From an uncultured Gammaproteobacteria bacterium (GTDB lineage: Bacteria; Pseudomonadota; Gammaproteobacteria; UBA9214): 64,000 nucleotides of DNA. The stretch lies in contig CAVVHS010000004.1 in NCBI GenBank assembly GCA_963748215.1, positions 1 through 64,000 on the forward strand. Reading direction: 5' to 3'. Shown here in pieces: positions 1,989 through 26,769 of this stretch. The stretch's first letter is position 1, and every line of letters starts with the position of its first letter. A program made the translations under genes and the position numbers. The notes under the pieces were generated by a model, which was given only the letters and a program-made list of their open reading frames with translations, was not told the DNA's origin and searched no databases.

Positions 1989-2130
1989 TAAAATTGGCTT
2001 GTTTATAATGTGTGAAGTCACCGCTGATACTGTAGCAGCGTCTGGAACTAGTTATTCGTAGTGAGCAGATAAAAATTCGAGTACTGATTGGATCCTTTTT
2101 CAAGCTGTCATGTGAGGCCTATTTCATTGC

Positions 2131-5878: not shown

Positions 5879-6039
5879 ATTTTTATCCCGTCATCCCAGC
5901 CTTCAACCGATATCCGGCACCGAGGTACTGGGGAGGGGGAAAAATAAGATTCTTCATATGGTTTACTGGAAAAGGAATTTATTCACTATGTTTGCTGCAT
6001 GGGAATATACGTTATTACCAGCCCAAGTTCGACCAGCCT

Positions 6040-6667
6040 GACAGGCTCTCCTGCAAATAACTGACCGGACGAATCCAGTCAAACGTAGTATTGGGCGTAG
6101 CGTGTAGCATGAGGCAACCGGGGTTGGCCCACCTGCACCCACTCGCGACACTCCACAGGTCCTGGCAATTACCCGACACCGAACCACTGACCAAATCATC
6201 ACCACCAGCAAGGCAATCTCGGACCAGGATATCCATGCCCGGCTGGGTGCTGTTCAGACTACACAGGCAATGGGATCCACCTGCAAGCCGGCTTCGTTGC
6301 TGAAGTGGCATCAGGTGAGGCAAATACTGGACTCAAGTCTGGTCGAAATCGGCCGCCATACCTGCCATCATGTACGCCTGTATGTGGACACACTGGCAGA
6401 CCTGATGCAGCGGGAAATCACCAACAGCAAGACAGTCGATTGAGGAAAATACCGGCAAGGCGGCTGATGACGTATTGCTTTCCCAATGGGGATTTCACGT
6501 CGGACGCACTTGAACTGGTCAGACAGCGTTACGTTGGCGCAGTCACGACACAAAGCGGCTGGAACACAGCGGCTACTGATTGTTACCTGCTGTCCCGAAT
6601 CGGCATTCATAATGATATTGCCCGCGACCAGACGGCGTTACTGGCCAGACTCTCGGGGTGGATGTAA
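6040..6667 (+). pseudogene. 5'-truncated, frameshifted polysaccharide deacetylase (start approximate)
   Basis: LKWHQVRQILDSSLVEIGRHTCHH (from 6270) and TYCFPNGD...AVTT..GWN...RIGIH are in different frames; the TFDD-containing N-half is absent. Confidence 0.7.
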
Positions 6668-6668
6668 A

Positions 6669-8102
6669 GTGACAACTCAGGATCACAGGGACAGGAATCA
6701 GATTATAAGCAATCCTGTAACCGCCTACCGGGCTTTGTACCGGAATGCGGACACCCAGAAACTGCAAGCGATCAGCCAGCTTGCCGAACGGCACGACGAC
6801 CTCAAACGGCAACACCAGGACATTCAGGCACAGACACAAAAACTCTCCAGGCTAATTGGCACCGCGAAAAAACAGGGTGAGCCCATCGATACGCTTATCC
6901 ACACCATGCAAGAACACAGTGCGCAGCTCAAGGCCATCGTGAACCAGCAGTTGCACGTTGAAGAAGATCTTCTGAAATATTTTGATCTTCCACCGGCCGG
7001 CGAGGAATCCCCAAACCCGCCGGCACCGGCATTTGATACTCACCGTTATTCAGCGTCTGCCGTTGATGAACAGGATCTCAGCATCGAACACCTGGATGCC
7101 GGGCTGGCAGAATGGAATACCTATGTTGCCAGCAACCCGGCCGCATCCATTTATCACCGGTCAGAATGGCGGGAGCTGATTCACAAGACGTTCGGCCATG
7201 ACTGCCTCTACCTGCTTGCCCGCGACCGTAACAAGGGAGTAGTCGGTGTCCTGCCACTGGCACACCTGAACAGCCGGCTGTTTGGTAACTTTATGATTTC
7301 CATGCCATATTTCAATTATGGCGGCGCTGTCGCCGATCACCCCCTGATCGAACAGCGACTGATGGAAGCCGCCAATGCACACGCCGCGCAGGCAGGCATC
7401 GATCACATCGAATACCGCGACACCCTGCCCCGCGAGGGCCTGCCCGTGCGCAGCAACAAGGTCTGCATGCTGCTGACACTGCCCAAAGAGCAGGATGTGC
7501 TCTGGCACAGCTTCTCCTCCAAGCTGCGTGCACAGATCAGGCGTCCACAACGCGAACAGCCTGATGTCAGGTGTGGTGGACTGGAATGCCTGGATGATTT
7601 CTATGCCGTGTTCACACGCAATATGCGTGACCTCGGTACACCTGTATATGGCAAGGCCTTCTTCAGGAATATTTTGCAGACGTTCACAGAGCACAGCAGA
7701 ATCATCAGCATACACCTGCATAATCGGCCTGTAGCCGCCGCTTTTCTGCTGGGTTATCGAGGGCGACTGGAGATCCCCTGGGCATCATCCATCCGGCAGG
7801 TAAACCACCTGAGCATGAATATGCTGCTCTACTGGGAGGTGCTGAAATTCGCCATTGACCATCAATACACGGTTTTTGATTTCGGCCGCTCCAGCCGGGA
7901 TTCAGGTACTTACCGGTTCAAGCAGCAGTGGGGTGCACAACCCGTCCAGTTGTACTGGCACTACTGGCTGAATGACGCGGCCGAGCTCCCCGAACTGAAT
8001 CCGGATAATCCGAAATACGCACTGGCCATCAGCCTGTGGAAGCGCCTGCCCGTGCCGGTTGCGAACCGTATCGGCCCATCCCTGGTCAAGTATCTACCTT
8101 GA
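6669..8102 (+). CDS. FemAB-like XrtA/PEP-CTERM system protein with an N-terminal seryl-tRNA synthetase-like helical arm
   Basis: GTG at 6669. C-terminal ~340 aa has SRLFGN..ISMPYFNYGG, RNMRDLGTPVY, FDFGRS, FKQQWGA, LNPDNPKY. First ~110 aa align without gaps to the SerRS N-terminus. Confidence 0.85.
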   Translation: MTTQDHRDRNQIISNPVTAYRALYRNADTQKLQAISQLAERHDDLKRQHQDIQAQTQKLSRLIGTAKKQGEPIDTLIHTMQEHSAQLKAIVNQQLHVEEDLLKYFDLPPAGEESPNPPAPAFDTHRYSASAVDEQDLSIEHLDAGLAEWNTYVASNPAASIYHRSEWRELIHKTFGHDCLYLLARDRNKGVVGVLPLAHLNSRLFGNFMISMPYFNYGGAVADHPLIEQRLMEAANAHAAQAGIDHIEYRDTLPREGLPVRSNKVCMLLTLPKEQDVLWHSFSSKLRAQIRRPQREQPDVRCGGLECLDDFYAVFTRNMRDLGTPVYGKAFFRNILQTFTEHSRIISIHLHNRPVAAAFLLGYRGRLEIPWASSIRQVNHLSMNMLLYWEVLKFAIDHQYTVFDFGRSSRDSGTYRFKQQWGAQPVQLYWHYWLNDAAELPELNPDNPKYALAISLWKRLPVPVANRIGPSLVKYLP

Positions 8103-8132
8103 TAGCCCATCACCGGAATTAGCTCATTAAAA

Positions 8133-9173
8133 TTGAAGAATACTCTGAAAAAATGGCTTGTACCGGTTCTCGCCAGTCGCCCGATTGCTGCACTGGCCAT
8201 GCGTCTGCTTGGTTCCGGCATTCCGGTTTTCATGCTGCATCGCATCACGCTGGATGAGAACACGCAGACAGGCGCGGTCACATCCGAGTATCTACGGCGT
8301 TGCCTGACCTACCTGGCAGAGAACCGCTACACCTTCATCTCCCTGGAGCAACTGCTTGTTGCACTGATGAACAATGACAGGCTGCCACCCAGACCCGTGG
8401 TCTTTACCATGGACGATGGCTATGTCGACCAGGCCGAGATCGCAGCCCCCATCTTCCGGGAATTTGACTGCCCCCTGACATTCTTCGTCGTTACCGGCAT
8501 GCTGGACCAGGCACTCTGGCCATGGGATGCCAAGATAGCCTGGTTGACGCAAACGACCCGGCAGCCCGCGCTGAATCTGGACCTTGGTGGCAAACCTGTC
8601 GTGGTCAGTCTCGGCGCAAACGATGACCGCCGGCAGGCGAAACGCGCCTTGCTGGACATGCTGCGAAGTATCCCGGCAGTGGAAGTTCCGGATGCCATAC
8701 GGCAACTCGAAGTGGCTGCCGAGGTCAGGATCCCGGAAGACCCGCCCGCAGCGTACCGGCCCATGGACTGGAATATGGCCCGCATCCTGGAGCGCAGGGG
8801 TGTTCGCTTCGCACCGCACTCGGTCTCACACAATATCCTCTCCAGACTCGACCCGGAATCACTGCAGCATGAGATCGAAGATGCCTGGAACAGGCTGCAG
8901 GCGGAACTGCAGCATCCTCTCAAGGTGTTTTGTTATCCGAATGGACGTCAGAATGATTTCGGTCAGCGGGAAATCGCGCTGCTCAAAAATCTTGGCTTTC
9001 TTGGTGCCGTTTCCACAACACCGGAACCGGTCCAACCAAGGAGAAATCATCCGCAACAGCTGTTCAACCTGCCCCGGCTGGGGCTGCCCGGCAGCATGGA
9101 AGACTTTATCCAGTACTGTACCTGGATAGAATACTTCAAGGGTGGAAAACCCTTATCTGCCGCGAAGCAATAG
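8133..9173 (+). CDS. Polysaccharide deacetylase (NodB family)
   Basis: FMLHR, FTMDDGY, HSVSH, FCYPNG. Confidence 0.85.
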   Translation: MKNTLKKWLVPVLASRPIAALAMRLLGSGIPVFMLHRITLDENTQTGAVTSEYLRRCLTYLAENRYTFISLEQLLVALMNNDRLPPRPVVFTMDDGYVDQAEIAAPIFREFDCPLTFFVVTGMLDQALWPWDAKIAWLTQTTRQPALNLDLGGKPVVVSLGANDDRRQAKRALLDMLRSIPAVEVPDAIRQLEVAAEVRIPEDPPAAYRPMDWNMARILERRGVRFAPHSVSHNILSRLDPESLQHEIEDAWNRLQAELQHPLKVFCYPNGRQNDFGQREIALLKNLGFLGAVSTTPEPVQPRRNHPQQLFNLPRLGLPGSMEDFIQYCTWIEYFKGGKPLSAAKQ

Positions 9174-9183
9174 TACTGCCTTG

Positions 9184-10323
9184 CTAGCGCAGCAGTGATC
9201 GGCAACGCCGGACTACCGCACCCGCCAGTCTCTCCAGCAGAAACCGGGTGCGCCCACGCTGCAGGACAACCCAGTACAGCGGCTCGCTACGATTACAAAG
9301 GATCGACTTGTACAGCTCATTGCCATGCATGAGATCATAGACGTCCATCCCCTGCTCCCGATTGTGCTGCATGGCAAGTATATGCACCACGTAGCCCGGC
9401 TGCAGGCGTTTGTCCGCTGACATAGCAAATCCCGTCTGCTGGACATAGACACGCCCGCGCCACAGGAAATTGTAGAGATAACCGATTACGTGACTGGCAT
9501 TGCGCACACACAACAGCTGAATCTCACCGCTCGCAAAGCGATCCCGAATCAGGGCACGGTGAAAGGCTTCCCAGCGCGGATTGGCAAAAGCACCCCGCTG
9601 ACCTCTCGCCTGACGACGCTGGGTATGTAAAACCTTGAGACCATCCAGAAACGCCTGGGCCTGTCCTGCATCGGCTGCCTCATCCAGGATGAGCGGACTG
9701 TCTTGCTGATAGAGTTGCACGGCGCGCCGGACCTGGCTACGGCGGTTCTTGCTCAAATGAGCCAGGCAGCCTTCCAGCCCCGGCGGCAGGCCGGCCAGGT
9801 CCACCTGCCAGGCCGATGAAACCTCATTGGTCAGCAAACGCGCTGTGTCGGCTACCGCCACTTGCAAAGGTTCATAAGCATCGGCACCCGCAAGTGCACC
9901 GAAGTGGAATTCGTCGCGTGCCGGATAGTGGGCCAACAGATGCTGAACCGCCGCCCGGTAGACAATCACCTCGTGGCCGCACCGTACCAGCAGACCATTG
10001 TATTCCAGCACCATGTTTCTGCCGTCAAGTGGATACTCATTCAGAAACAGGGTCAGGGCATTAATGACGTGATGGCGGTGTAACTCTGCAGGCACCAGGA
10101 TGCCCAGGCCTATGATTGTCTGGTCTGCGTAAACCCGGAGCACCAGGGGGTTCAGGTCGCTGGCGACTTCTGCAAGCCAGGTACCGATCCAGCCCCAGGA
10201 CTGGAAAAAAGAAGCCTTGGCATCAACCTCGAGTGCCTGCCACTGCCGTGCCAGGTCAGGAAGATCATCCAGCGGGCGTGATTCAATCCTGATGTCCGCT
10301 TGTGTGTCGAGTGCTTCAGACAT
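9184..10323 (-). CDS. GNAT acyltransferase, CelD/BcsL-like
   Basis: FFQSWGWIGTW, LSKNRRSQVRR, QPG, YDLMHG..YK; ATG at 10323. Confidence 0.75.
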   Translation of the reverse strand: MSEALDTQADIRIESRPLDDLPDLARQWQALEVDAKASFFQSWGWIGTWLAEVASDLNPLVLRVYADQTIIGLGILVPAELHRHHVINALTLFLNEYPLDGRNMVLEYNGLLVRCGHEVIVYRAAVQHLLAHYPARDEFHFGALAGADAYEPLQVAVADTARLLTNEVSSAWQVDLAGLPPGLEGCLAHLSKNRRSQVRRAVQLYQQDSPLILDEAADAGQAQAFLDGLKVLHTQRRQARGQRGAFANPRWEAFHRALIRDRFASGEIQLLCVRNASHVIGYLYNFLWRGRVYVQQTGFAMSADKRLQPGYVVHILAMQHNREQGMDVYDLMHGNELYKSILCNRSEPLYWVVLQRGRTRFLLERLAGAVVRRCRSLLR

Positions 10324-10360
10324 GCGGCTTGCCGTGCATGAGCACAATCGAGCGCAGCAT

Positions 10361-11236
10361 TCAGGCCCGGTTTGCAACCGGAACGACCTCCTCCAGCAGA
10401 CCCAGGTCCTGCAGCACCTCCCGGGCGGTGGTAAATTCAAAATCTTTCATCAGTGCCAGCAGTCGGGCCTCGCAACGGTGCAGGTTGTTGTAATGACGAA
10501 ACCGTGAAAACCAGCGGGCCTCGATCCTGGGCTGCTTGTGGTCTATCTCCCACGGATGCAGGTAGAAGATAAACGGTTTGCTGGACTGGTGGTTGATCTG
10601 GCGCAAACCGGTACGGGTCAGGAAATAGGGATACAGGCGAAAATAGCCACCACCGGCAACCGGCATCCGTACCCCCAGCAGGCGTGCCGTAGACAGCGGA
10701 AATTCCACGATACGGTGACCGGCCGGCGTATCCTGGTGATAGGGAAAACTGGGGGCATCAGGGATGCCATAGCGATCATGGCGTACCGGAAATATGCTGG
10801 AATCATATGCAAAGCCGGCTTCGGCAAGGGTATCCAGCGCCCACAGGGAACGGTTAGTAATTGAATAACTTGCCGCGCGGTAACCGTATACGGGCGTCTG
10901 GATAATATCTTCGAGCAGTGACTTGGAACGCAGGGTTTCCTCTCGGAATTCCCCGGGGGTCTGATTGTAGACCAGCTGGTGACTGTAACCGTGGCAGGCC
11001 ACCTCATGACCCTGCGCGGCAATCTCCCTGACAAGATCCGGCACCCGTTCGGCAACCCACCCCAGCACGAAAAACGTGGCCTTCACACCGCTGTTATCAA
11101 ACAGTTCCAGCAAACGCTGCGTATTCTTTACCACCCGCAGCGGGTAGTTATCCCAGTCATCCCGGTTGATGCTGCCGGCAAAGGCAGAGACATGGAAATA
11201 GTCCTCGACATCAACGGTTAACGCGTTTCTTATCAT
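10361..11236 (-). CDS. XrtA-system polysaccharide deacetylase (DUF3473)
   Basis: NALTVDVEDYF, ATFFVLGWVAE, HGYSH, GYRAASYS, GGGYFRL, FYLHPWE. Confidence 0.9.
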   Translation of the reverse strand: MIRNALTVDVEDYFHVSAFAGSINRDDWDNYPLRVVKNTQRLLELFDNSGVKATFFVLGWVAERVPDLVREIAAQGHEVACHGYSHQLVYNQTPGEFREETLRSKSLLEDIIQTPVYGYRAASYSITNRSLWALDTLAEAGFAYDSSIFPVRHDRYGIPDAPSFPYHQDTPAGHRIVEFPLSTARLLGVRMPVAGGGYFRLYPYFLTRTGLRQINHQSSKPFIFYLHPWEIDHKQPRIEARWFSRFRHYNNLHRCEARLLALMKDFEFTTAREVLQDLGLLEEVVPVANRA

Positions 11237-11276: not shown

Positions 11277-12182
11277 TCAAATGGAAACTATCCGTCCTGC
11301 GCCGCTAGCCGGTATCTTCGGGGGGCTATCCGTGTCACCGTAAGCCGCGTAATAGTTGTAATAGTAGCCACCCCGGTTAGAGATGCTCTCGCTCTTGTTC
11401 AGCAACAGGCCGATGGCCTTGTCCCTGGGTACCATCTCCAGGGCGTCCTGCACAATTGTAAAGGGTGTCTTGCCTGCCTCTATGACGAATACAACCTGTC
11501 CGACAAGCCCTGCCAGCACCTGGGATTCCGGCGTGGACAGCAACGGGGGAGCATCAAACACCACGATACGATCGGTGTAACGGGTTGAAAACTCGCTGAC
11601 CAGCCGCGCCATTCGTTGACTGGCCATCATTTCAGTGATGTACTCATGGGGCTTGCCTGCCGGCAGCAAAACGAGGCCGGGCACATCGGTCTTCAGCAAG
11701 GCATCCTCGATCGGCATGTTCTCGCTGGCCAGCAGGTCGGTAATATCGGGGCGACGCTGCTCGACGCCCAGCAGCCGGCTCATGCCCTGCTTGGTGACGT
11801 CACAGTCCACCAGCAGCACGGTATGGTCCCGCTCCTGGGCAAGTGCCAGCGCGAGGTTGACGGCCGTGTAGGTTTTACCTTCACCGGGAACAGAACTGGT
11901 CACCATGATCAGGTTGCCCTGGTCAACCAGTGACGAGGACTTGCCGAAGGCATTGGACAGCAGCGGACGCTTGATCCTGCGGTATTCACCCCGGATATCG
12001 GGACCCAGCGCACTGTCAGGAACCAGCATGTTCCTGTCACGCAAGCGGTCCATGATCCTTACTGCATTCTGTGAGGTTTCTGAATCTTTCAAAGCCGCAC
12101 TCTTCAATTCGCTCACCTTGGCCTCGGCTGCTTTTGGCTGCCGGGCGTGCCGACTCAGACCATAACTGTCATTAACATGCAT
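11277..12182 (-). CDS. XrtA-associated protein-tyrosine autokinase
   Basis: EYRRIKRPL, Walker A GEGKT, FDAPP, C-terminal Tyr cluster GYYYNYYAAY. Confidence 0.88.
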   Translation of the reverse strand: MHVNDSYGLSRHARQPKAAEAKVSELKSAALKDSETSQNAVRIMDRLRDRNMLVPDSALGPDIRGEYRRIKRPLLSNAFGKSSSLVDQGNLIMVTSSVPGEGKTYTAVNLALALAQERDHTVLLVDCDVTKQGMSRLLGVEQRRPDITDLLASENMPIEDALLKTDVPGLVLLPAGKPHEYITEMMASQRMARLVSEFSTRYTDRIVVFDAPPLLSTPESQVLAGLVGQVVFVIEAGKTPFTIVQDALEMVPRDKAIGLLLNKSESISNRGGYYYNYYAAYGDTDSPPKIPASGAGRIVSI

Positions 12183-12186
12183 CTTA

Positions 12187-13773
12187 CTATATTACTTCAC
12201 TTATTTCGGCAAGCATCTGCCTGGCCTGTAGCGATCCCTGCTGCTGATAAAGCACGACAGCGCCGAAGAATCCAAACATTAAGACAAGCACCATGAGAAA
12301 AGACGCCATATCCAGGCGCCTCTGCCGGCGTTTCTCCGGTGTCACTTGCAGGCTGATGGTGCCCAGCACCGGCAGATCGATCATCTTTTGCAACTGCTTG
12401 AAATCCACAAAGGTCGGGTACAGCAGGAAACGGAACACACACCAGCCAAACCCGGCACCCAGTGCAGCCAGAAACACTGCCGCCAGCAATATTGGCCGGT
12501 TGGGACCCGCTGGCAGCAGCGGCACAACCGGCGCATCCACGACGCGGAAGATCAGGGCGCTGTTGTTCTTTTCGACCTGCTGTGCCATCCGGGCCGATTC
12601 ACGACGCTCCACCAGCGCCAGGTAGCGTTCCTTGGTAATGTCATAGTCCCGGTTCAACCTGACGAGGTCGGCCTCGACCTGCGGAATGATATCCATGGAT
12701 TGCTGCAACTCCGCCAGCTTCTGGCTCTGTTCAGCCAGCTGCACCTGCAGGGTGCTGACCTCGATACGGGCACGACTCTCCTGCGCCTTGAGATCCTGGT
12801 AGACAGGGTTCATGGCCACATCGGTATCACTGACAAACGACGCGCTGTCACCGTCCGTATCTATACCATTTTGCAGGTCCTCGATGCGCGCACGCATCGC
12901 CTTGACATCCGGATGTTCATCGGTGAACTGTGAGAGCATGTCGTTCAGCTGTTCCTGGTACCTGCGCAATTTCGCAGCGGTTGCCTGTGCATAGGCATTG
13001 TTAGCCAGCATGGGTGATTCGCCGGACAGCTGTCGTCTGAGTTCGTTATAACGCTGCTTGGCCTGCGCCAGCGCCGACTTGGTGTTGTCGATGAGCTGCT
13101 GCTGGCTGTTGAGACGTGCGTAGTAGCCACCCTGCTCGTTGGGCATGAAGCCGGAATTCTTTTTCTTGAACTCGGCCAGTCTTTCCTCGCCAGATTCAAG
13201 CCGCTTTTCGTAGTCCTTTATCTGTTCGTTCAGGAAGTCTTCCGCCATCTCCGTATCCATGCGCCCGGAGTTGAGCGTGTTCTCCATCAGGGTATTGAGC
13301 AGGTTGAAAACGACCTTAAAGGCCTGTTCCGCCGATGCGGACTGGTAGGTGATTTCATAAATACTGCTGTTGCTGGCGCGGCGGCGCGTGTCGCCTACCC
13401 GGTTCAGCTGGATCGAATTTGCCAGCCCAAGCACCATCATTTCGCGGGCCTGGGGGTTGTCGACGTTCAGATCCATGTCGGTTTCACGGATCACCTGCAG
13501 CAGGTTATCCCGGCTGAGCAGGACACTTTGCATCACATCGATTTCGTCCCGCGGACTGGCTTCCATCACAAGATCCGCCAGCAAGGGCTGCATGACGGAA
13601 CTGGTGTCAATATGCACGGTAGTCTTGGCAGCGTAGATGTTTGGCATCGAGTACACATACACCCCGCCGACAACGGCTACCAGCCAGGCAATCAGCAGGC
13701 CCGACCAGCGGTAACGCCACAATCCGTGAAGATAGCCAAAGGCAACATTTATCTGATCGTGTATCGATATCAT
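12187..13773 (-). CDS. XrtA-system polysaccharide chain-length determinant (Wzz/Wzc N-part)
   Basis: WRYRW, two TM regions flanking a long coiled coil, FTDEHPDV, LNRDY, FRVVDAP. Confidence 0.88.
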   Translation of the reverse strand: MISIHDQINVAFGYLHGLWRYRWSGLLIAWLVAVVGGVYVYSMPNIYAAKTTVHIDTSSVMQPLLADLVMEASPRDEIDVMQSVLLSRDNLLQVIRETDMDLNVDNPQAREMMVLGLANSIQLNRVGDTRRRASNSSIYEITYQSASAEQAFKVVFNLLNTLMENTLNSGRMDTEMAEDFLNEQIKDYEKRLESGEERLAEFKKKNSGFMPNEQGGYYARLNSQQQLIDNTKSALAQAKQRYNELRRQLSGESPMLANNAYAQATAAKLRRYQEQLNDMLSQFTDEHPDVKAMRARIEDLQNGIDTDGDSASFVSDTDVAMNPVYQDLKAQESRARIEVSTLQVQLAEQSQKLAELQQSMDIIPQVEADLVRLNRDYDITKERYLALVERRESARMAQQVEKNNSALIFRVVDAPVVPLLPAGPNRPILLAAVFLAALGAGFGWCVFRFLLYPTFVDFKQLQKMIDLPVLGTISLQVTPEKRRQRRLDMASFLMVLVLMFGFFGAVVLYQQQGSLQARQMLAEISEVI

Positions 13774-14638
13774 CTTTGTATCACTGTCAGAACTGGTCTG
13801 AAGACATCTGCATTGCGGGTAGTAGACAGGTTTTCATTCCAGATTGGTTGATCCTTCGCACCGTGCCAGAGGTTGTTACCAGGTAAGAGACTGTAGCGGC
13901 AATGGTGCAACATTCTTGTCCGGCTTCACTGATATTACACAAACAACACCAAGGTGATGGTACAGGAATTTCCAGTCATGGCATCACGTGTTCCGTTGTT
14001 CGATCAATTAAATAATTTACTGTTTTATAACAACTTTACTTGTAGGCGCCATTCACACGTCACCACAGGTCGACACCAGCTCTTCCGTGTGTTGGCAATA
14101 TTTCAATTCGTGGGCATACCGGCGACAATCAGGTAAGATTTGTATTGAATATCAATGTGTTAATAGTTTGATATTCGAAATTGACCTGGGAATAGTGCGT
14201 TCAACACCGAACATCGCAATCGACGACGGGTATTCTACACAAGAACATCCTGGAATTAATACCGTTATCCACAAAATGTCACCATCACACACGCCCTGCG
14301 TGGCGGCAACCCAGCCATTTTCGGGGCAGCCCCAGGCGGCGAGTTAACCGGCATCAGCGGCTTGTACATGAGTCCCGGCAGCGTGCTGTCACTTCCCAGC
14401 TTTCTGAACAGAAACATACCCCTGCAGACGATCTGGTCGATTGGCTACAGCGGCAGCGCCACCGACTTTCACCCGCACGGCGCAATTGGGTCTGTACCCG
14501 GCCACACTGGATTCCTCAACCACAGCACGGCGAGTATCCCGGGTACCGGCTGCCGTTGCCCTGCGTAGTCTCGGCCGGGTTGTTTCGGCGCCCTGCGTCA
14601 CCCCGGAAAAGCAGCCTGGTCTGTTGTGTCGCACGCTG

Positions 14639-14665
14639 AAAGCGGCTCGACCGGGTGGCTTTTTA
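14639..14665 (+). terminator. Imperfect hairpin with T tract next to the prsT stop
   Basis: AAAGCGGCTCG-AC-CGGGTGGCTTTTT. Confidence 0.35.
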
Positions 14666-14678
14666 TACCGTCAGCCGT

Positions 14679-17489
14679 CTATTTCTCTTTTGCCAGCAGT
14701 CGTTCTGCCTCATCCCGTCCTGGAAAGGACGTGACCTCGCCAAGCAGGGTCCTGAGCAATTGCCGCCCGGCTTCCAGGTCACCCGAACGGTACACGGCCA
14801 CGGCATGGTGATAACGCACTTCCGCATTATCCGGCAGCAACTTCACCGCGCGCTCGAGGATCTGCCTGCCCTCTTGCAGTGAACCCTGCTGGACCAGCAG
14901 CCAGCCATAGGTGTCCATGACCCCGGGATTGTCAGGGGCAAGCTGCCAGACCCGTTTTGCCAGGCCCAGCGCCTCCGCCTTGCCGGCCTGCTGGTAGAGC
15001 CCGGCGAGATTGTTGAGCGCCACTGTGTTATCCGGATCAATTGCCAGCACACGCTCGTACTGGCTGATTGCCAGTTCTGTCTGCTCCGTGTTCTGCCACG
15101 TGATACCCAGGTACTGCATGGCCTGAACATCGTCCGGGTGCCCGGACAACCAGTCCTGCAGGTAACCGACAGCGACAGCATGCTTGCCCTGCCGGCTGGC
15201 GTTATCCGCCTGCTTGATCACCAGTTCCACGGATTCCTGTCGATCCCGTGCGCGCGCATATTCCCTGTCCGCCGTCTCGAAATCACCCTTTGCCATGTAG
15301 GCATCTCCGGCCAGCTCGTAACCCAGGTAGAACTCCGGGCGCTGCTGCTGGATGCGCTGGCAGAGCTCAAGCGCCCGGTCGATGGCACCGCCAGCAATCT
15401 CCAGCTGCACCAGCAAGGATTGCGCCGGCACGTTATCCGGGCTGCCATCCAGTGCCAGCTCCAGCTGCTCGCGCGCCTCAGCAACACGTCCCAGCTCCAG
15501 GTAACACTCCCCCAGCAAGACGCGTGCATTGGCCAGGCCGGGCTGCATTGCGACCAGATCAGACAGCGGCGTGATGGCAGCGCGGTAATCCTTGCCGGCC
15601 ATGAGCAGTCGTGCCTGCAGGAGCAGCACTTCCGGCTGGCGCGGCGCGATCTTCAGCGCTGCGTTTGCATGCGACTGTGCCATCAGGATGTTGCTGTTGC
15701 GGAGGTAGTATTCAGCGAGATACAGGCGCGGTTTTACATCATCGGGTGCATGGTCAGCCGCCCGTTTCAGCCAGTCGACCATCGCCTCGATGTCACCCTG
15801 TGCTTCCGCCACGCGGGCCAGTGCCAGCATCGGCAAGGCGGATGCCTCGCGCTGGTCGACCAGTTTCAGGTAGATGTCGCTGGCTGCCTGGTAATTGCCC
15901 TCCAGCTCTTCCAGGTTGGCGAGTGACAGCAGGGCCGGTTGAAATTCCGGTTTACTGGCCAGTGCACGTTGCAGGTATCTGCGTGCTTCAGCACGGTCAC
16001 CACTGGCGGCAAATACGTTGCCTGCCAGCGTCAGCCGGACCTGATCTTGCGGATCATCCTCGACCATGGTCAGTACCAGACTGATTGCCTCGCTGAGCTC
16101 GCCGGCACCAAGGTGCGCCAACACCAGCAATGCCTGCGTCTGCCGCCGCTCGCCGCCTGCGGTCAGGATTGATCTGAGCTCGCTGATGGCAAGCCCGCTG
16201 TCACCTGAATCAAGGTAGGCACGTGCCAGCTCGGTTCGAATATCAACACTGTCCGGACTGACGCTGAGCGCCTTCTGCAGACCGGCTATACCGGCCTGCT
16301 TTTCACCACGGCCCAGCTCGGACAGACCCGCGAGTGCCAGCAGCTCGGCATCCTGGCTGTCTTCCGTTATCGCCGATTGCAGAATAACTCCGGCCTCCTC
16401 GTGCTGCCCGAGCAGGATCTTGCTGCGAGCCAGCAGTTTACGAGCAGCGATGTTCTCCGGCTCCGCGGCCAGATACTTTGACAGGAAATAGGCGGCCTGC
16501 TCAAAATTCTGTCTGGCAAAACTCACCGTGCCAAACAGCAGGCGTGTAGGATTATGCTCCGGTGCCAGTTTCAGCACCTTGAGCAACAGTTCGCCCGACT
16601 TTTCATAGTCACCCCGCTCGAATGCCAGCACCCCCCTCAGGTAATTGACAATCGGATCATTGGGGTCCCTGCCATACAACGGCTTGAGGGTTGCCTCGGC
16701 CAACGGGTTCTTCCCCGCCATAATCTGCAACTCCGCGAGTTGCAGGCGGGCATTCCGCCCATAGACGGAGATAAAGCCCGGCGGATCGATATCCATGACA
16801 CGCTGATAGCTGTCTGCGGCGGCATTTACATCACCGGTGTACTGGTACAGGCTGCCATCGAGCAACAACAGTTCCTGATCGTCGGGATAGCTCTCAACTG
16901 CAGAGTTCAGGATATCCCGGACTTCGGCCAGTTGTTCTGAGAGGATATGCAGCTGGATCCTGACCTTCTGTACCTGCAGGGCGGTGGGGGCCAGCTGCGT
17001 GGCCTGCTCGACCAGCAGACTGGCACGGTCCGGGTTGTCGAGCCCGGCCTCAGCGACCGCCTGCAGGGCAAGCAGGTTTGCCCGGCCAGTCGCCGTCCAG
17101 GAATCTTCGGGCTGCGTGGCATCACGCAGCTCACTGTACAGGCCCATACCCAGCAACGCGCGGGCGACGCCCAGGCGTGTTTCTTCCCTGTTCCATCCAG
17201 CCGATTCTGCACGCCTGAATTCCTTTGCAGCGGCCTCGTAATCACCGTAATCCAGATTGATACCGGCGAGCAGGTAACGTGCCCTGGCATTGTCCGGATT
17301 GGCCTGTAAAACATTCTTGAGTTCGATGACGGCGGCATTGATATTGCGATTTGCCAGGTAGTCAGCAGCTTTCTGCATCAGTTGCTGCTCGTCCATGAAC
17401 CAGTCACTGCAAGCCAGCAGCGACAGCACGAGCAGTGCCAGTATTGCGGATTTGCTTCCCGCCATTCGATAGATCATCACCTGTCCCAC
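14679..17489 (-). CDS. prsT: PEP-CTERM system TPR lipoprotein PrsT
   Basis: Lipobox LSLLAC, AAVIELKNVLQ, many TPRs, LNNLA...MDTYGW; adjacent to xrtA. Confidence 0.88.
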   Translation of the reverse strand: MGQVMIYRMAGSKSAILALLVLSLLACSDWFMDEQQLMQKAADYLANRNINAAVIELKNVLQANPDNARARYLLAGINLDYGDYEAAAKEFRRAESAGWNREETRLGVARALLGMGLYSELRDATQPEDSWTATGRANLLALQAVAEAGLDNPDRASLLVEQATQLAPTALQVQKVRIQLHILSEQLAEVRDILNSAVESYPDDQELLLLDGSLYQYTGDVNAAADSYQRVMDIDPPGFISVYGRNARLQLAELQIMAGKNPLAEATLKPLYGRDPNDPIVNYLRGVLAFERGDYEKSGELLLKVLKLAPEHNPTRLLFGTVSFARQNFEQAAYFLSKYLAAEPENIAARKLLARSKILLGQHEEAGVILQSAITEDSQDAELLALAGLSELGRGEKQAGIAGLQKALSVSPDSVDIRTELARAYLDSGDSGLAISELRSILTAGGERRQTQALLVLAHLGAGELSEAISLVLTMVEDDPQDQVRLTLAGNVFAASGDRAEARRYLQRALASKPEFQPALLSLANLEELEGNYQAASDIYLKLVDQREASALPMLALARVAEAQGDIEAMVDWLKRAADHAPDDVKPRLYLAEYYLRNSNILMAQSHANAALKIAPRQPEVLLLQARLLMAGKDYRAAITPLSDLVAMQPGLANARVLLGECYLELGRVAEAREQLELALDGSPDNVPAQSLLVQLEIAGGAIDRALELCQRIQQQRPEFYLGYELAGDAYMAKGDFETADREYARARDRQESVELVIKQADNASRQGKHAVAVGYLQDWLSGHPDDVQAMQYLGITWQNTEQTELAISQYERVLAIDPDNTVALNNLAGLYQQAGKAEALGLAKRVWQLAPDNPGVMDTYGWLLVQQGSLQEGRQILERAVKLLPDNAEVRYHHAVAVYRSGDLEAGRQLLRTLLGEVTSFPGRDEAERLLAKEK

Positions 17490-19063
17490 CCCTGTTCACT
17501 CGGTTGGCCGTCTGCGATCCGGGAAAGCATCGGTTCCATGGCTGCAAGGAAATCACCCAGCTCTCGGCGTACATCCGCAATATCCGCGTCGTGGTCTGCT
17601 GCGAGAGCGTAAATCGCGGCGCTCCGTCGCCCGGTCAACAGACCGGTCACTTGCAACGCCTTGGCCACATAGCGGCTGGTCGTATCGTGCCCGGCGACCC
17701 GGTATCGGTACCAGACCAGCCGGCGCTGGCCGCCCGCGGAAACCAGTTCTGCTTCGATCACTCGCTGCCCGCCACTGCTGACACGCTGTTTGCCGGCACC
17801 GGCCTGCTGCCAGGCCTGGTTATCGCTGATACTGTTCAGGTCATTGATCAACTCGCTGTCCTGGCGTTGCTGCGGGTAATAGCCGACATACAGCAGCACC
17901 CGGATACCGTCCTTATGGTAACTACGCCGGAGTTCGGTTGCACCATGATAAACAGGCATCCAGCTGTCATTTGGCAAGTCGGGTCCCGCCCAGCCGGATT
18001 GCCCGGGCGGCAATACCAGTGCCACGGTTGATGTCGCCGCTATGCGGTGTTTTGCCCACCACGCAATGGCAGGCCCGGACGCGATCAGTGCAGTAACGAC
18101 AACCAGCAACAGCGAGCCCCGCACGAGATCATAACCGCAGTCTGTCCGGCTGGTCGTGCCGACGTGATCCACGGTCGTATCATCCGCCACCACCCTGCGA
18201 CGGTAAATCATGTGATCGACAAACAGCAACACCAGCACCAGCGCGCCGAACAGGTACCAGCCAAGCATCAGATGATCTTTCACGAACGGGTGCTGCATAT
18301 CCGTGTGATAGGCCAGGTAGATAATGACGAACACGCGCAGTATGTTCGCCAGTACTGCAGCGCCTGCCACTATAGCGATTACCAGCAGACGGGACCGGAA
18401 ATTGCGGTAGTTCAGCCAGGCATAGAACACACCCAGCGTCAGCGACGCCAGCAGGTAGTTAAGACCGCTGCAGGCGGCCTCGATCGATAGCCACCCTGCT
18501 GGTAACTGCACCTCGTAATCCTGCACGTAGGCGGTTATACCGAACAGGTGTGTCAGGGAAAATGCACCGGCAGCCGTGATTTCACGCAGTACCGGCAGTA
18601 GCGGCTCCCAGACCGGCAGTGCAAAGACGATGAACATGACGGGAAACAGCAATTGCAGGGTAACGCGCGCGCCCGTAACGACCCATATCACCGACAGGAT
18701 CAATGGCAACAGGATAACCACCTGTACAACCTGCACGTCCGCAAGTGACGCCGCCAGCCATACGATTGTGCAGGCGGCAACCAGCAGCAGGGCACCGGCA
18801 CTCGGATATGGCGCCTGTGCGAGGATTTTTTCACGCCGGTGATAGACCAGATAAAGGCCGACCGCCAGTACGATGAACCCGTGGCCATAGGGCCCATCCC
18901 CGAAACGGGACCAAAGCCCGCCCAGATACAGTACCGTGTCCCGGTACAGGATCAGGAGCAGGCCGATCATGCCGGCCAGCAACAGGCCCACACTTCTCCA
19001 CCCGTATACTGACTGCCCGTCGTTATGAATCAATCCGTCAGGCTCCGTTCCTGTCAATACCAT
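17477..19063 (-). CDS. xrtA: Exosortase A (EpsH-EpsI fusion)
   Basis: Multi-TM with catalytic C (ACSGLNY), R (NILRV) and H (DHLMLGW); C-terminal EpsI domain. Confidence 0.92.
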   Translation of the reverse strand: MVLTGTEPDGLIHNDGQSVYGWRSVGLLLAGMIGLLLILYRDTVLYLGGLWSRFGDGPYGHGFIVLAVGLYLVYHRREKILAQAPYPSAGALLLVAACTIVWLAASLADVQVVQVVILLPLILSVIWVVTGARVTLQLLFPVMFIVFALPVWEPLLPVLREITAAGAFSLTHLFGITAYVQDYEVQLPAGWLSIEAACSGLNYLLASLTLGVFYAWLNYRNFRSRLLVIAIVAGAAVLANILRVFVIIYLAYHTDMQHPFVKDHLMLGWYLFGALVLVLLFVDHMIYRRRVVADDTTVDHVGTTSRTDCGYDLVRGSLLLVVVTALIASGPAIAWWAKHRIAATSTVALVLPPGQSGWAGPDLPNDSWMPVYHGATELRRSYHKDGIRVLLYVGYYPQQRQDSELINDLNSISDNQAWQQAGAGKQRVSSGGQRVIEAELVSAGGQRRLVWYRYRVAGHDTTSRYVAKALQVTGLLTGRRSAAIYALAADHDADIADVRRELGDFLAAMEPMLSRIADGQPSEQGWDR

Positions 19064-20417
19064 CCATACCCAGCTTCTTCATCAGGTTATACAGCGATGG
19101 CCGGCTGATACCGAGCGCCTCCGCAGCATGGGACATGTTGAAGTTGTTAACATCCAGTGCACGCTGGATAACCTTTTGCTCCGCCGCTTCACGCGCCTCG
19201 CGCAGGCTCAGTGACAGCGTCGCACCCGCATCATCATCCTGCAGCCCCAGGTCTTGCTCGGTAATGGTCTTGCCTTCCGCCATGATGACCGAGCGCTTGA
19301 CGCGGTTTTCCATTTCACGCACGTTGCCTGGCCAGTCATAGACCTCGATACGTTCGCATGCCTGATCGCTGAACCCGCGAAAGCGGCGGTGGTTCTCGCC
19401 GGAATATTTTTCCAGGAAGCTGCGCGCGAGCAGCAAACGGTCGCCCGCACGTTCCCGTAATGCCGGTATGTGGATGACGATTTCGGTGACGCGGTAGTAC
19501 AGGTCCTCGCGAAAGCTGCCGGCAGCGATCAGGCTCTGCAGATCGCGGTGCGTGGCGCAGATGACCCGCACGTCGACCGGTATCTGCCTGTTGCCGCCGA
19601 GTCGTTCGACTTCGTGCTCCTGCAGAAAGCGCAGCATCTTGGCCTGCAGCGACATCGGCATGTCGCCGATTTCATCGAGGAAAAATGTGCCGCCGCCGGC
19701 ATGCTCGATCTTGCCCGATTTCTGCCGCACCGCGCCGGTGAATGCGCCTTTTTCATAACCGAACAACTCGCTTTCCAGCAGGGTTTCCGGAATGGCCGCA
19801 CAGTTGACTGCCACGAAGGGGCCGTTGCGACGCGAACTCAGACCATGCAGGGCACGCGCAACCAGCTCCTTGCCGGTACCACTCTCACCGGTAATCAGTG
19901 TAGTCGCATCGGTCGGAGCGACCTTTTCGATCACCCGGCACACCTCCTGCATCTCGGCACTGGCATAGAGAATGCTCTCGAGTGCGTTGCCTGAACGCTC
20001 GGCAAGCAGCCGCCGGTTCTCGGCCTCCAGATCGTACAGGTTGTTGGCACGATCAACCATGAGTGCCAGCACTTCGGGGTCGACCGGCTTCTGGTAGAAG
20101 TCATAGGCCCCCAGCGACACCGCCTTCAGGGCGACCGCCTGGGCATCATTACCGGTCACCACGATAACCTTGGTATGCGGGGCAAGCTGCAGCATCTGCT
20201 CCAGCGCTGCAAGTCCTTCCGAGGCATTGGCAGTATCGGGCGGCAAACCCAGGTCGAGAGTGACTACGTGCGGCCGGTAGCGCTGTAACTGGTCGATTGC
20301 CGATTCACGTGTATCCGCGATATGGACCTCGTAACCATTGAACGCCCACTTGAGCTGCTTCTGCAATGCGGGATTGTCCTCCACGACCAGCAGGGGTTTC
20401 AGGTGACTGCCATTCAT
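19038..20417 (-). CDS. prsR: PEP-CTERM-box sigma-54 response regulator
   Basis: Receiver LDLGLPPD, GESGTGKE, GAFTGA, C-terminal HTH. Confidence 0.92.
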   Translation of the reverse strand: MNGSHLKPLLVVEDNPALQKQLKWAFNGYEVHIADTRESAIDQLQRYRPHVVTLDLGLPPDTANASEGLAALEQMLQLAPHTKVIVVTGNDAQAVALKAVSLGAYDFYQKPVDPEVLALMVDRANNLYDLEAENRRLLAERSGNALESILYASAEMQEVCRVIEKVAPTDATTLITGESGTGKELVARALHGLSSRRNGPFVAVNCAAIPETLLESELFGYEKGAFTGAVRQKSGKIEHAGGGTFFLDEIGDMPMSLQAKMLRFLQEHEVERLGGNRQIPVDVRVICATHRDLQSLIAAGSFREDLYYRVTEIVIHIPALRERAGDRLLLARSFLEKYSGENHRRFRGFSDQACERIEVYDWPGNVREMENRVKRSVIMAEGKTITEQDLGLQDDDAGATLSLSLREAREAAEQKVIQRALDVNNFNMSHAAEALGISRPSLYNLMKKLGMDGIDRNGA

Positions 20418-20476
20418 GCTTTTTTCCTGTGTATTGTAATTACATTTCTCCTGGTGAGTGCAGCCAGCAACCCGTG

Positions 20477-22591
20477 CTACGCGTCTACAGGCAACGCGTT
20501 CCGGTCATCCTGCGCCGCCGGAAGATACAGCGTGACAGTAGCGCCGTTGCCCGGCGAGCTGCTGACATTAATCTCACCTCCGAGTTCGCGGATGAACTCG
20601 CGGCTTTCGTACATGCCGATACCCATACCGGCGTTACCCTTGGTGGTGTCGAACGGTTTGAACAGGCGGTTACGGATGAAATCGTCATCCATCCCGTGGC
20701 CGTCATCCCGGATATCTACCACGCATACCGGGTCCTGCCTGCGCAGGCCGATCCGCACATACCCCTGTGCGGTAGTCGCCTGCTGGGCATTTTCGACCAG
20801 ATGTATCAGTACATTTTCAAGACGCTGCTGGTCGGCTGTCACCCGGCATACACCATCCGCCAGCTCAAGAACCGGGACAGGATCACTGCTGGAGCGCCGC
20901 GTGACTACGTCCTGCAACAGGGCCGGCAGTTCGATCAGCACATTTTTTCCGGACAGTGCCTTCTTGCTGCGCAACTGTTCAAGCAGGCGTTTGATATCCG
21001 TGGCAGCCGCTGACACCGAGTCAAACGCATCGCTCAGGAATTCCGGGTTATCCCTGTGCCGTACCGCATTCTTGGCGACCATTTCCAGGCCGGCGGCAAT
21101 ATTCTTCAGATCATGCACCATGTAGGAGGACAGGCGATTGAACACCTCGAACTGTTTCGCCTGTGCCAGCGCGTCTGATGTCATGATAACGGCCAGGTGG
21201 CCAGCCACCTGGCGCGCCGCCGTCTTCAGCAGGTCCCGGTCTTCCCAGTTCACATCCCTGGCTACCAGTGGTCTTGCCAGCACCACGAATCCCAGCAGGG
21301 ATTCCGTCCCGGGCAGCGGTACAATCAGCCAACCCTGCTCGATGTCAGCGAGCCATGCCGGCAGCTTCAAGCCGCTGTATTCATCCGGTCGTTCCGCCAG
21401 CTCCAGCAGATTGATCACGTAACCGTTGTCACCGAGAAATCGAACCAGACTGGAATCGGCAGGTTCCGTGGTGTCTATACGCCCCGCCCCCCAGCTTGCC
21501 ATGCAGGAATACACGCCGCGTTCGTCGCATAACCACAGCAATCCCGCCCGCGCATCCACGAGTTGCCCCAGCACCCGAATGGCCGTCTCGTAGCGGCCAG
21601 TTTCCCCGCCGGTCTCGCTCAGCGCACGGGTCAGCGACAGCCATTCCACGCGGTAGTCATATTTGTTCCGATAAAAGTGCTTGCCAAGAAATACCCGCAA
21701 CTGGCGCCGTATCTGCACGGAGAACAGCACCGCGATCAGAAAAATCGCTGCAAGCGTGAAAAAAGCAATCTTGGCGACACGCCCCCAGCTGCCGCCGTAT
21801 TCCTGCAGGTAATAGCCGGCCGCTGCCATCACCAGCAGGTACAGCCCGCTGCCGACGATGGCCGTGGTATGCAGCACGATATCGCGCGAGATGAATATAT
21901 TTGGCGACCAGTCCTTGTTGCGGGCGGCGGACAGGGCCAGCAGAGGCACCGTGAACAGGTTGATGAAGCCGCGCGCCTCCCAAAGTTCGCGGTCAAGTCC
22001 CTTGAACATCGCGGCGTTGGTATAAAGATAAAAATCGAATGCGAAAATCACCCCGGCCCCGATGAACAGGTACTTGAGCATATGCCGGTGATTTACCGCA
22101 AGATTGCGATACAGCTGTTCGATGATTGACAGCCCGATGACCGCCAGCAACACATGCCCCATGAATCCGAGTGCCGAGATATCATACGTATCGCTTAATC
22201 GCGGCACATACCGGACGACCATCTCGATCAAGATGACAATCAGGCCAAATCCCACCGCTACCGCACGCATATGACGCTGCAGAAAGGAATGCCCCACGAT
22301 TTGCCGGGCCGCCGGCTCGAACAACTTGAGCAGAAACAGGTACCAGAAGACATAGCGCATGACCTCGAACACCTGGTAAGCCACTGGCGGGTACCGGCCA
22401 TCGTGAACCACGGTCATTGCAAGCAGCGCCCAAAGCGCGGTACATAACACGACCGCCGTCAACAACTTGCCTTCAACGCTGCTGCGCCAGCTGAATAGCA
22501 ACAGCACGGCAAAAAAGCCGAAACCAAGTGCTGCACTGAGGTATCCGTAATAGCCGATCGTCATAGTCACGGGAGATGTTGCCTCCATCAC
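20477..22591 (-). CDS. prsK: PEP-CTERM system histidine kinase
   Basis: TM N-half, KHFYRNKYDYRVEW, GAF region, VHDLKN, DDGHGM, GMGIG. Confidence 0.92.
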   Translation of the reverse strand: MMEATSPVTMTIGYYGYLSAALGFGFFAVLLLFSWRSSVEGKLLTAVVLCTALWALLAMTVVHDGRYPPVAYQVFEVMRYVFWYLFLLKLFEPAARQIVGHSFLQRHMRAVAVGFGLIVILIEMVVRYVPRLSDTYDISALGFMGHVLLAVIGLSIIEQLYRNLAVNHRHMLKYLFIGAGVIFAFDFYLYTNAAMFKGLDRELWEARGFINLFTVPLLALSAARNKDWSPNIFISRDIVLHTTAIVGSGLYLLVMAAAGYYLQEYGGSWGRVAKIAFFTLAAIFLIAVLFSVQIRRQLRVFLGKHFYRNKYDYRVEWLSLTRALSETGGETGRYETAIRVLGQLVDARAGLLWLCDERGVYSCMASWGAGRIDTTEPADSSLVRFLGDNGYVINLLELAERPDEYSGLKLPAWLADIEQGWLIVPLPGTESLLGFVVLARPLVARDVNWEDRDLLKTAARQVAGHLAVIMTSDALAQAKQFEVFNRLSSYMVHDLKNIAAGLEMVAKNAVRHRDNPEFLSDAFDSVSAAATDIKRLLEQLRSKKALSGKNVLIELPALLQDVVTRRSSSDPVPVLELADGVCRVTADQQRLENVLIHLVENAQQATTAQGYVRIGLRRQDPVCVVDIRDDGHGMDDDFIRNRLFKPFDTTKGNAGMGIGMYESREFIRELGGEINVSSSPGNGATVTLYLPAAQDDRNALPVDA

Positions 22592-26682: not shown

Positions 26683-26750
26683 CCTCTTTGATCGAACCAG
26701 TCAGCGGGAGTGATATACAGCCCGCCGATTGAAGCTCAGTAGTCAAACTA

Positions 26751-26769
26751 TTGGCATATTCCGTGCCAA
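26751..26769 (-). promoter_or_regulatory. Sigma-54 promoter (-24/-12)
   Basis: Minus strand TTGGCACGGAATATGC = GG-N10-GC. Confidence 0.7.

Follow-up and report, generated by a model that had tools for sequence, protein, structure and literature searches.

A gene that joins the tRNA-binding arm of a seryl-tRNA synthetase (SerRS) to a FemAB-like transferase was analysed in a stretch of 64,000 nucleotides (nt) from an uncultured Gammaproteobacteria bacterium of the lineage UBA9214 (GenBank assembly GCA_963748215.1, contig CAVVHS010000004.1, positions 1 to 64,000 of the forward strand). The whole of this stretch is called the window, and all positions refer to it. The fused gene is located at 6669..8102 on the plus strand, with a GTG start codon and a stop codon at 8100-8102, and encodes 477 amino acids. 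Judged from its sequence, the product consists of a SerRS-type arm of ~105 amino acids, a linker of ~40 amino acids and a complete FemAB-like domain (TIGR03019), and it is not a synthetase. The fused gene lies in a complete XrtA/PEP-CTERM exopolysaccharide (EPS) locus. The core XrtA/PEP-CTERM genes, which define the locus, are found together on the minus strand (11277..22591): a tyrosine autokinase (11277-12182, TIGR03018), a chain-length determinant (12187-13773, TIGR03007), PrsT (14679-17489, TIGR02917), XrtA with an EpsI domain (17477-19063, TIGR03109/TIGR02914), PrsR (19038-20417, TIGR02915) and PrsK (20477-22591, TIGR02916). All of these XrtA-locus genes, as well as a polysaccharide deacetylase of the TIGR03006 family, scored above their cut-offs and are located at most 15 kb from the fused gene.

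The open frame is uninterrupted from 6486 to 8102 on the plus strand in the list of open reading frames (ORFs) of the window. The TAA of the upstream ORF lies at 6665-6667, and the GTG of the fused gene follows at 6669. Alignment A1 was made from the window protein and 113 of its 120 best database homologues (114 sequences); the window protein's own record (P0002) and six shorter proteins (P0063, P0068, P0095, P0103, P0109 and P0111) were omitted. In these 114 full-length homologues the N-terminal extension ahead of the conserved W149 is 141-197 amino acids long, mainly 146-148, and it is 146 amino acids long in the window protein. Because the extension lengths cluster at 146-148 amino acids, the start at 6669 is supported and a start past 6995 is excluded; the latter had been named, in an earlier note made from this DNA alone, as a finding that would speak against the fusion. 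The extra N-terminal segment which that note had described ahead of the FemAB-like domain is real, since it is in frame within the same 477-amino-acid ORF, and every string quoted there is present in the translation from 6669. A promoter and terminator scan of 5700-9400 returned nothing exceeding the shuffled expectation.

The C-terminal part of the protein (residues 147-477; 7107..8099, plus strand) was assigned to the FemX-like tandem-GNAT aminoacyl-transferases by TIGR03019, Pfam and Foldseek. The scan with TIGR03019 ('FemAB family XrtA/PEP-CTERM system-associated protein' of NCBIfam), which had been proposed earlier, gave a full-model match of 380.3 bits (cut-off 260.35), in which residues 147-477 correspond to profile positions 1-330 of 330. 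Pfam matches to Acetyltransf_6 and FemAB were also found in this part. The best PDB match of the full-length AlphaFold2 (AF2) model in the Foldseek search was FemX from Weissella viridescens (E 1e-15, template-modelling score TMt 0.70-0.72). Further matches include FemA (1LRZ, E 8e-13) and FemX (6SNR, E 1.5e-12) from Staphylococcus aureus, the aminoacyl-tRNA-dependent peptide synthases Sbb17 and Sba18, and the domains of MprF/aminoacyl-phosphatidylglycerol synthases. A profile search of the PDB also retrieved FemX (7e-8).

In the phmmer alignment, the segment Y-R-F417-K418-Q of the window protein stands opposite Y-V-F304-K305-H of W. viridescens FemX, a segment whose last residue is FemX 306. 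On the basis of this alignment and of conservation, F417-K418 (7917..7922, plus strand) can be regarded as the equivalents of FemX Phe304-Lys305. K418 is invariant and F417 is at least 90% conserved, both in A1 and in alignment A2, which comprises 79 sequences with and without arms (L042, L063, L072 and L097 were omitted, owing to a contig end or a broken frame). The passages cited from PMC9723616 describe Lys305 of FemX as the catalytic residue, with a role in the chemical step itself, and Phe304 as a residue conserved across all Fem transferases that contacts C75 of the tRNA. Since the Fem fold occurs here with the conserved Phe-Lys pair, the machinery for aminoacyl-tRNA-dependent transfer appears to be present in the catalytic domain; the fold, the catalytic pair and the fused arm together suggest that aminoacyl-tRNA may serve as the donor.

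The SerRS N-terminal tRNA-binding arm was recognised at residues 8-103 (6690..6977, plus strand) by PF02403, AF2, profile search of the PDB, Foldseek and BLASTP against the SerRS of the same genome. The match to PF02403 (Seryl_tRNA_N), the other scan proposed in the earlier note, is above the gathering cut-off (E 7.5e-10; 39.5 against 28.2 bits), and residues 8-103 correspond to profile positions 3-99 of 108. When all six frames of the complete 3.5-Mb genome were searched with PF02403, two matches only were obtained, namely the SerRS gene and the fused gene (42.9 bits). The earlier note had aligned this segment by eye, without gaps, with the E. coli SerRS N-terminus; a gapless alignment in register was obtained with the genome's own SerRS, in which residues 34-101 match residues 29-96 (24/68 identities, 35%, E 8e-8). 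The same note had admitted that the segment might be a generic coiled coil. This can be discounted, because PF02403 is matched above its cut-off, whereas generic coiled-coil proteins reach just 20.8-22.9 bits; these values come from second PF02403 matches in five other genomes, all below the cut-off and in large generic coiled-coil proteins.

Profile comparison of the arm gave a similar result. Alignment A3 contains 42 arm-only sequences from different genomes, for which 41 of 43 arm stretches were taken (L063 and L072 were omitted). When the A3 profile was searched against the PDB, the nine best distinct sequences were SerRS without exception (E 2e-10 to 1.6e-3), and their residues ~5-101 were aligned in register; the first non-SerRS protein appeared at E 0.0088. 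The best-conserved part of the arm is the hairpin-tip motif S60-R-L-I-G-T-A-K-K-Q-G70 (6846..6878, plus strand), which aligns with S-K-x-I-G-Q-A-K-x-x-G-E-D of gammaproteobacterial SerRS (Pseudomonas and Klebsiella chains). Residues S60, R61, I63, G64, A66, K67 and G70 stand opposite SKAIGQAKQRGED of one of the SerRS chains in this comparison. G64 is invariant in A1, with S60, R61, I63 and A66 at least 90% conserved; among the 42 diverse arms of A3, R61, G64 and L76 are at least 90% conserved. A word-indexed search with residues 1-110 alone returned the window protein's own record as its single match.

The predicted structure is also that of a SerRS arm. The AF2 helices (3-14, 16-23, 29-69 and 74-103) are the same in the full-length model (predicted local distance difference test, pLDDT, 88.5) and in the arm-only model (pLDDT 93.6), and helices 29-69 and 74-103 are predicted to pair as a long antiparallel coiled coil. 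In the Foldseek search with the arm-only model, ranks 1 to 16 were all SerRS (TMq 0.65-0.72). Taken with the PF02403 match, its uniqueness in the genome, the BLASTP alignment and the PDB profile, this bears out the proposal that the N-terminal ~105 amino acids are genuinely homologous to the arm with which SerRS binds tRNA, and are not a generic coiled coil. The SerRS equivalog model TIGR00414 scored 16.7 bits (cut-off 301.65), and its match is confined to residues 8-101. The class II catalytic core is thus absent and the fused protein cannot charge tRNA; because the fusion includes just the tRNA-binding arm, charging must come from the housekeeping SerRS. The arm is followed by a flexible linker (residues 104-146; 6978..7106, plus strand), which is Pro-rich in the window protein, as had been noted before, and of low complexity family-wide. 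Residues 104-133 are predicted to be disordered, with pLDDT below 50 at 108-121. Across the 114 homologues the linker is rich in Ala, Pro, Glu, Thr, Ser and Asp, and the stretch corresponding to residues 104-135 is 27-37 amino acids long.

The fusion is conserved, in frame, across related genomes, its carriers being marine Gammaproteobacteria. Precomputed Pfam annotation places PF02403 in 91 of the 120 best database homologues, and nearly all of the remaining 29 also have 443-499 amino acids and span no less than 93% of the query. The fusion was also counted across genomes, as the earlier note had advised. A TIGR03019-like gene was found in 68 of 401 sampled genomes of the same phylum; the match reaches into the arm in three of the 68 (G000, G107 and G394), and begins at profile position 99 or later in the other 65. 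PF02403 itself is present in 386 of the 401 genomes, nearly always once, with two matches in G000 and G107 (G383 in this tally is flagged unpublished). In a species-representative genome collection, the 80 loci of highest similarity include 44 with the arm according to an arm hidden Markov model (HMM) made from A1, and Pfam detected PF02403 in 41 of 79 complete genome-derived proteins.

The full-length arm, with an extension of ~145 amino acids, is found in uncultured Gammaproteobacteria, Thiotrichaceae, Granulosicoccaceae and Spongiibacteraceae. A short arm (extension ~105 amino acids, arm profile ~42-99, tip motif intact) is found in Marinobacter (L051, L068, L082 and L099) and Oleiphilaceae (L076 and L090); its cultured carriers include M. 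algicola DG893, M. lipolyticus and M. maroccanus. Forms without an arm were seen in Nitrospirota, Steroidobacteraceae, Woeseiaceae and others. Genes in metagenome-assembled genomes (MAGs) of Verrucomicrobiaceae (L045), Hydrogenophaga (L079) and Saprospiraceae (L052) group with the gammaproteobacterial members, although these MAGs are assigned to other phyla or classes; the EPS module may have been transferred horizontally, or the bins may be contaminated. Among 1.84 billion proteins, the arm profile matched 59 cluster representatives at E<=1e-10; the ten short top matches of this search are truncated pieces of fused proteins. Stand-alone arm genes were looked for in short flanks, five genomes and ten proteins. 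The A1-based arm HMM found none within 1.5 kb on either side of 27 arm-less loci (L006-L032), and the second PF02403 matches of five arm-less genomes are below the cut-off and elsewhere in the genome, and the idea was dropped.

A quick maximum-likelihood (ML) tree of the Fem domain (79 rows, 332 columns) was reconstructed. The arm-bearing proteins cluster in this tree, with 4 changes of arm state against a mean of 25 in shuffles. Its backbone is poorly resolved, with 30 of 76 inner branches open; at least two arm changes are required by the branches with good support, and one of them concerns L069, labelled 'arm' solely for its long open frame without an arm match. A single origin of the arm was considered, but four changes are needed on this tree, by which neither one origin nor several is shown. 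A separate case is L005 (G394; 1501-2865, minus strand), whose branch is very long (1.87). Its N-terminal extension of 126 amino acids is recognised neither by PF02403 (one match in the genome) nor by the arm HMM; it could be an arm that has diverged strongly, or else an extension of unrelated origin.

Polysaccharide deacetylases accompany the FemAB-like genes. Directly downstream of the fused gene lies a gene of the polysaccharide deacetylase family (CE4, PF01522; 8133..9173, plus strand), a homologue of which is found 31-107 nt downstream of the fused gene in nine related loci (L033, L034, L035, L038, L039, L040, L042, L043 and L046). Within the window's own clade this downstream paralogue is located at 31-66 nt in seven loci (L033, L034, L035, L038, L039, L040 and L046), and a deacetylase paralogue precedes the fused gene in seven loci. 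The XrtA-system polysaccharide deacetylase (10361..11236, minus strand) is NodB-like, with matches to TIGR03006 at 419 bits and to NodB at E 3.4e-13. Its product starts MIRNALTVDVEDYF..., and inspection of this N-terminus revealed no N-terminal signal sequence. In eight loci of the same clade (L035-L040, L044 and L046) the TIGR03006 gene is also found further downstream on the opposite strand. Moreover, in 26 of the 80 loci, arm-bearing and arm-less alike, the gene immediately upstream of the FemAB-like gene and on its strand is a TIGR03006 homologue; there it overlaps the FemAB-like open frame or is at most 50 nt away from it, and it usually comes after the chain-length determinant and the tyrosine kinase.

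Upstream of the fused gene lies a remnant of a second deacetylase-family paralogue (6305..6667, plus strand), of which just the C-terminal part is present and which ends 2 nt before the GTG start. In a tblastn search with the 8133-9173 protein the remnant matched only residues 245-295 (E 0.003), and a three-frame read of 5879-6667 revealed no intact N-terminal half. Homologues of this stretch occur upstream of the fused gene in related loci. The distance between the GT4 gene and the fused frame in related loci is 1000-1250 nt, with a seemingly full-length copy; L046 has none. The remnant in the window looks like a decaying gene.

From these data we infer tRNA binding by the arm, serine as the donated amino acid, the amine of an amino sugar as the acceptor and a cytoplasmic site of action. 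The arm probably binds tRNA, and Ser-tRNASer is a plausible donor. The complete proposal, for which the chances are judged to be about even, is that the fused protein acts as a cytoplasmic aminoacyl-tRNA-dependent transferase of the XrtA/PEP-CTERM EPS pathway which has acquired a gammaproteobacterial SerRS arm and uses Ser-tRNASer. The arm of bacterial SerRS is described as the recognition site for the long variable arm (V-arm) of tRNASer in the passages cited from PMC9427863, and Fem enzymes are described as moving amino acids from aminoacyl-tRNA onto amines (PMC2922099 and PMC4964394, in the parts cited). In the proposed mechanism, the arm would capture tRNA in the manner of SerRS, gripping its elbow and long variable arm, and would favour Ser-tRNASer. 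The flexible linker of ~40 residues would give the acceptor end access to the Fem active site, in which the CCA end and the acyl transfer would be handled by F417 and K418. Serine would then be passed to a free amine, most likely that of an amino sugar in a lipid- or nucleotide-linked EPS precursor.

The acceptor is suggested by the neighbouring genes. Because a NodB-like deacetylase is linked to the FemAB-like gene, a de-N-acetylated amino sugar may be the acceptor; its amine might just have been freed by the partner NodB-like CE4 deacetylase. The EPS-locus context and the deacetylase neighbours point to an acceptor other than a peptidoglycan precursor. NodB, a cytoplasmic CE4 deacetylase, exposes a sugar amine for re-acylation, and NodA then transfers a fatty acyl group; NodA is unrelated to the Fem proteins. 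The logic of deacetylation followed by acylation can be likened to that of TIGR03006 and the FemAB-like gene, which are adjacent in many loci, with an amino acid in place of the fatty acyl group. Judged by sequence, either the EPS or PEP-CTERM protein glycans may be the target. A wider idea, which is tentative and rather doubtful, is that XrtA-type EPS or lipid-linked repeat units carry N-seryl amino sugars, and that the SerRS arm reveals the donor for the whole TIGR03019 family, the arm-less majority included. These sugars would be made by a two-step cytoplasmic module, in which a NodB-like deacetylase is followed by a Fem-like transferase using Ser-tRNASer.

Comparison with characterised systems showed both similarities and differences. 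Weissella viridescens FemX (1NE9, 4II9 and 7Z6A) is the best structural match of the catalytic domain and also its best sequence match in the PDB, although its identity to the window protein is only 15-16%. It has ~335 amino acids and no SerRS arm, like the arm-less majority of TIGR03019, and it uses Ala-tRNAAla and UDP-MurNAc-pentapeptide. S. aureus FemA, like FemB and FemX (1LRZ, 6SNR), shares the tandem-GNAT Fem fold. The arm of FemA is an insertion in the second GNAT domain (residues 246-307), whereas that of the window protein is N-terminal and set apart by a disordered linker. To our knowledge, the FemA arm is not homologous in sequence to SerRS; the arm of the window protein, by comparison, is identified as a true homologue of the SerRS N-domain. 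The donor of FemA is Gly-tRNA and its acceptor is lipid II, whereas the acceptor of the window protein is presumably an EPS precursor. Like the window protein, FemA is armed: it has a long antiparallel helical arm which has been likened to the SerRS arm and proposed to bind aminoacyl-tRNA, namely glycyl-tRNA (PMC4964394, in the part cited). The SerRS N-terminal domain (PF02403) is the same domain as the arm by sequence and predicted fold, with the same tip motif, and the nearest PDB relatives are the gammaproteobacterial SerRS of Pseudomonas, Klebsiella and E. coli; however, SerRS has a class II catalytic core, which the window protein lacks.

Other GNAT-fold transferases that use aminoacyl-tRNA are coupled physically or genetically to an aminoacyl-tRNA synthetase (aaRS). 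For example, MprF is fused to a LysRS paralogue, and VlmA of valanimycin biosynthesis, which transfers Ser from Ser-tRNA, is paired with the SerRS paralogue VlmL; in both pairings the identity of the aaRS equals the donor amino acid, according to the passages cited from PMC2922099. The MprF catalytic domains are also structural neighbours of the window protein in the Foldseek search. The MprF and VlmA systems carry or recruit a complete, active aaRS paralogue, whereas the window protein has just the tRNA-binding arm.

Several observations weigh against Ser-tRNASer as the donor and against tRNA binding by the arm. The arm-bearing form is a minority in the family, found in three of the 68 family-bearing genomes, so the arm is dispensable for the chemistry of the family. 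The large Marinobacter/Oleiphilaceae subclade keeps just a shortened hairpin. What all arms share is the tip; in mitochondrial SerRS this element touches the T-loop and not a V-arm (PMC9427863, in the part cited). Given the glycyl-tRNA proposed for the FemA arm, a helical arm alone does not dictate serine. The arm-only model was matched by Foldseek with weak E-values (0.02-0.3), which is common for helical hairpins, and because the linker is disordered the model does not fix the position of the arm relative to the catalytic domain. No tRNA gene was found in the window, and no PF02403 match beyond SerRS and the fused gene in the genome. The hairpin (residues 40-95) has a mean net charge of +3.2 and is positive in 35 of the 42 arms, but that of the window protein has only +1, and seven arms are neutral or negative. 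Net charge was set aside as a test of RNA binding, since the hairpin of the genome's own SerRS has a charge of 0 and the measure does not discriminate.

Three other explanations were considered. It is possible, though not favoured, that the arm is a general tRNA-affinity module acting on the elbow and T-loop without selecting tRNASer, by which the transferase would compete better for charged tRNA, and that the Fem pocket sets the donor, such as Ala or Gly, as in the arm-less majority. This would fit the glycyl-tRNA proposal for FemA, the absence of the arm in 65 of the 68 genomes, and the short-arm clades, in which chiefly the tip and some two thirds of the coiled coil are retained. Members with and without the arm also differ very little in the active-site region, where A2 has many invariant columns; this suggests that both carry out the same chemistry and that the arm is an accessory. 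However, the arm is specifically SerRS-derived and has kept the SerRS tip motif; the domain is the V-arm recognition site in bacterial SerRS (PMC9427863, as cited), and the aaRS names the donor in the known pairings with transferases (PMC2922099, as cited).

It is unlikely that the coiled coil has been re-used for a task that does not involve RNA, such as oligomerisation or docking on the coiled-coil proteins of the EPS system (chain-length determinant, tyrosine kinase), in which case the arm would be uninformative on the donor. Antiparallel coiled coils are common protein-protein modules, PF02403 weakly matches unrelated coiled-coil proteins as described above, the arm sits on a disordered linker without certain packing on the catalytic domain, and seven of the 42 arms are not positively charged. 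Yet conservation is concentrated in the SerRS-specific hairpin-tip motif and not at heptad positions, the other 35 hairpins are net positive, and the characterised relatives of the fusion partner's family all use aminoacyl-tRNA. Finally, an artefact (a start after the arm, a pseudogene fragment or a contig misassembly) is extremely improbable and for practical purposes refuted by the conservation data: despite the GTG start codon and the degraded remnant directly upstream, the frame is unbroken from 6669 to 8102, the extension lengths cluster, and the architecture with its conserved arm residues recurs in more than 100 independent database proteins and at least 40 loci of different assemblies.

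Several other genes surround the fused gene. A distant Acetyltransf_6 (GNAT) protein of 418 amino acids is encoded at 9184..10440 on the minus strand (PF13480, E 6.6e-24), in the slot after TIGR03006 where other loci hold the FemAB-like gene. With the listed TTG start the gene shares 80 nt with the deacetylase gene, so translation probably begins further in. No NCBIfam family matched this protein at E<=1. It was considered as a second Fem-like enzyme and rejected, as hhalign to the FemAB-like alignment gave a probability of 1.6% and there was no NCBIfam match. Its homologues are found in eight related loci, at 40-57% identity. On the other side, a GT4 glycosyltransferase (4748-5878, minus strand) neighbours the fused gene, and a carbamoyl-phosphate-synthase-like ATP-grasp gene (PF15632) lies at 2131-3303 on the plus strand. 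The latter recurs at 38-69% identity in loci with and without the arm (L037-L040, L046, L051, L098, L101, L109 and L112), often near a homologue of the 8133-9173 deacetylase, and may provide a second amino-acid-ligating step in the same pathway.

The G+C content is low at 1-2000 (39.5%) and 54001-56000 (44.5%), compared with ~55-65% across the rest of the window; the first of these stretches is at the edge of the EPS cluster, beside an O-antigen-ligase-like gene (134-1048). An ORF of 194 amino acids (25396-25980, minus strand) gave a weak match, below the cut-off, to the flocculation-associated PEP-CTERM protein PepA (E 2.5e-7). It is followed by two ORFs of similar size without a family (26050-26682 and 26743-27249), and all three may encode PEP-CTERM substrates of the exosortase.

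The literature search found no paper on a SerRS-arm/Fem fusion, on the donor, acceptor or product of TIGR03019, or on tRNA-dependent modification of XrtA-type EPS, with incomplete coverage (mostly without subscription journals, and without supplements); this agrees with the earlier note, which knew of no described donor for the family. In the sole paper found that mentions 'PEP-CTERM' together with 'FemAB', the gene appears just as a table entry. Both Pfam domains are already assigned to the fused proteins by automatic annotation, and the database names are either that of the TIGR03019 family or 'serine/alanine adding enzyme', transferred from MurM. It was already known that Fem transferases can have helical arms, and that parts of an aaRS can be coupled to tRNA-dependent transferases (PMC4964394 and PMC2922099, in the parts cited).

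TIGR03019 is a signature gene of XrtA/PEP-CTERM EPS loci, and these loci are widespread among environmental bacteria and among those that form flocs or biofilms. The fusion offers a testable donor hypothesis, Ser-tRNASer, for this uncharacterised family, and the deacetylase linkage adds the hypothesis of a de-N-acetylated amino sugar as the acceptor. Appending a SerRS domain at the N-terminus, as opposed to the internal insertion of FemA, would be a second and independent route by which a Fem-type transferase gains a helical tRNA-binding arm, and its acquisition bears on how tRNA-dependent transferases divert charged tRNA from translation. The cultured Marinobacter with the short-arm form make genetics and EPS chemistry feasible, and could serve as an experimental system. 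If true, N-seryl EPS would be the first case in which a polysaccharide other than peptidoglycan is aminoacylated in a tRNA-dependent manner.

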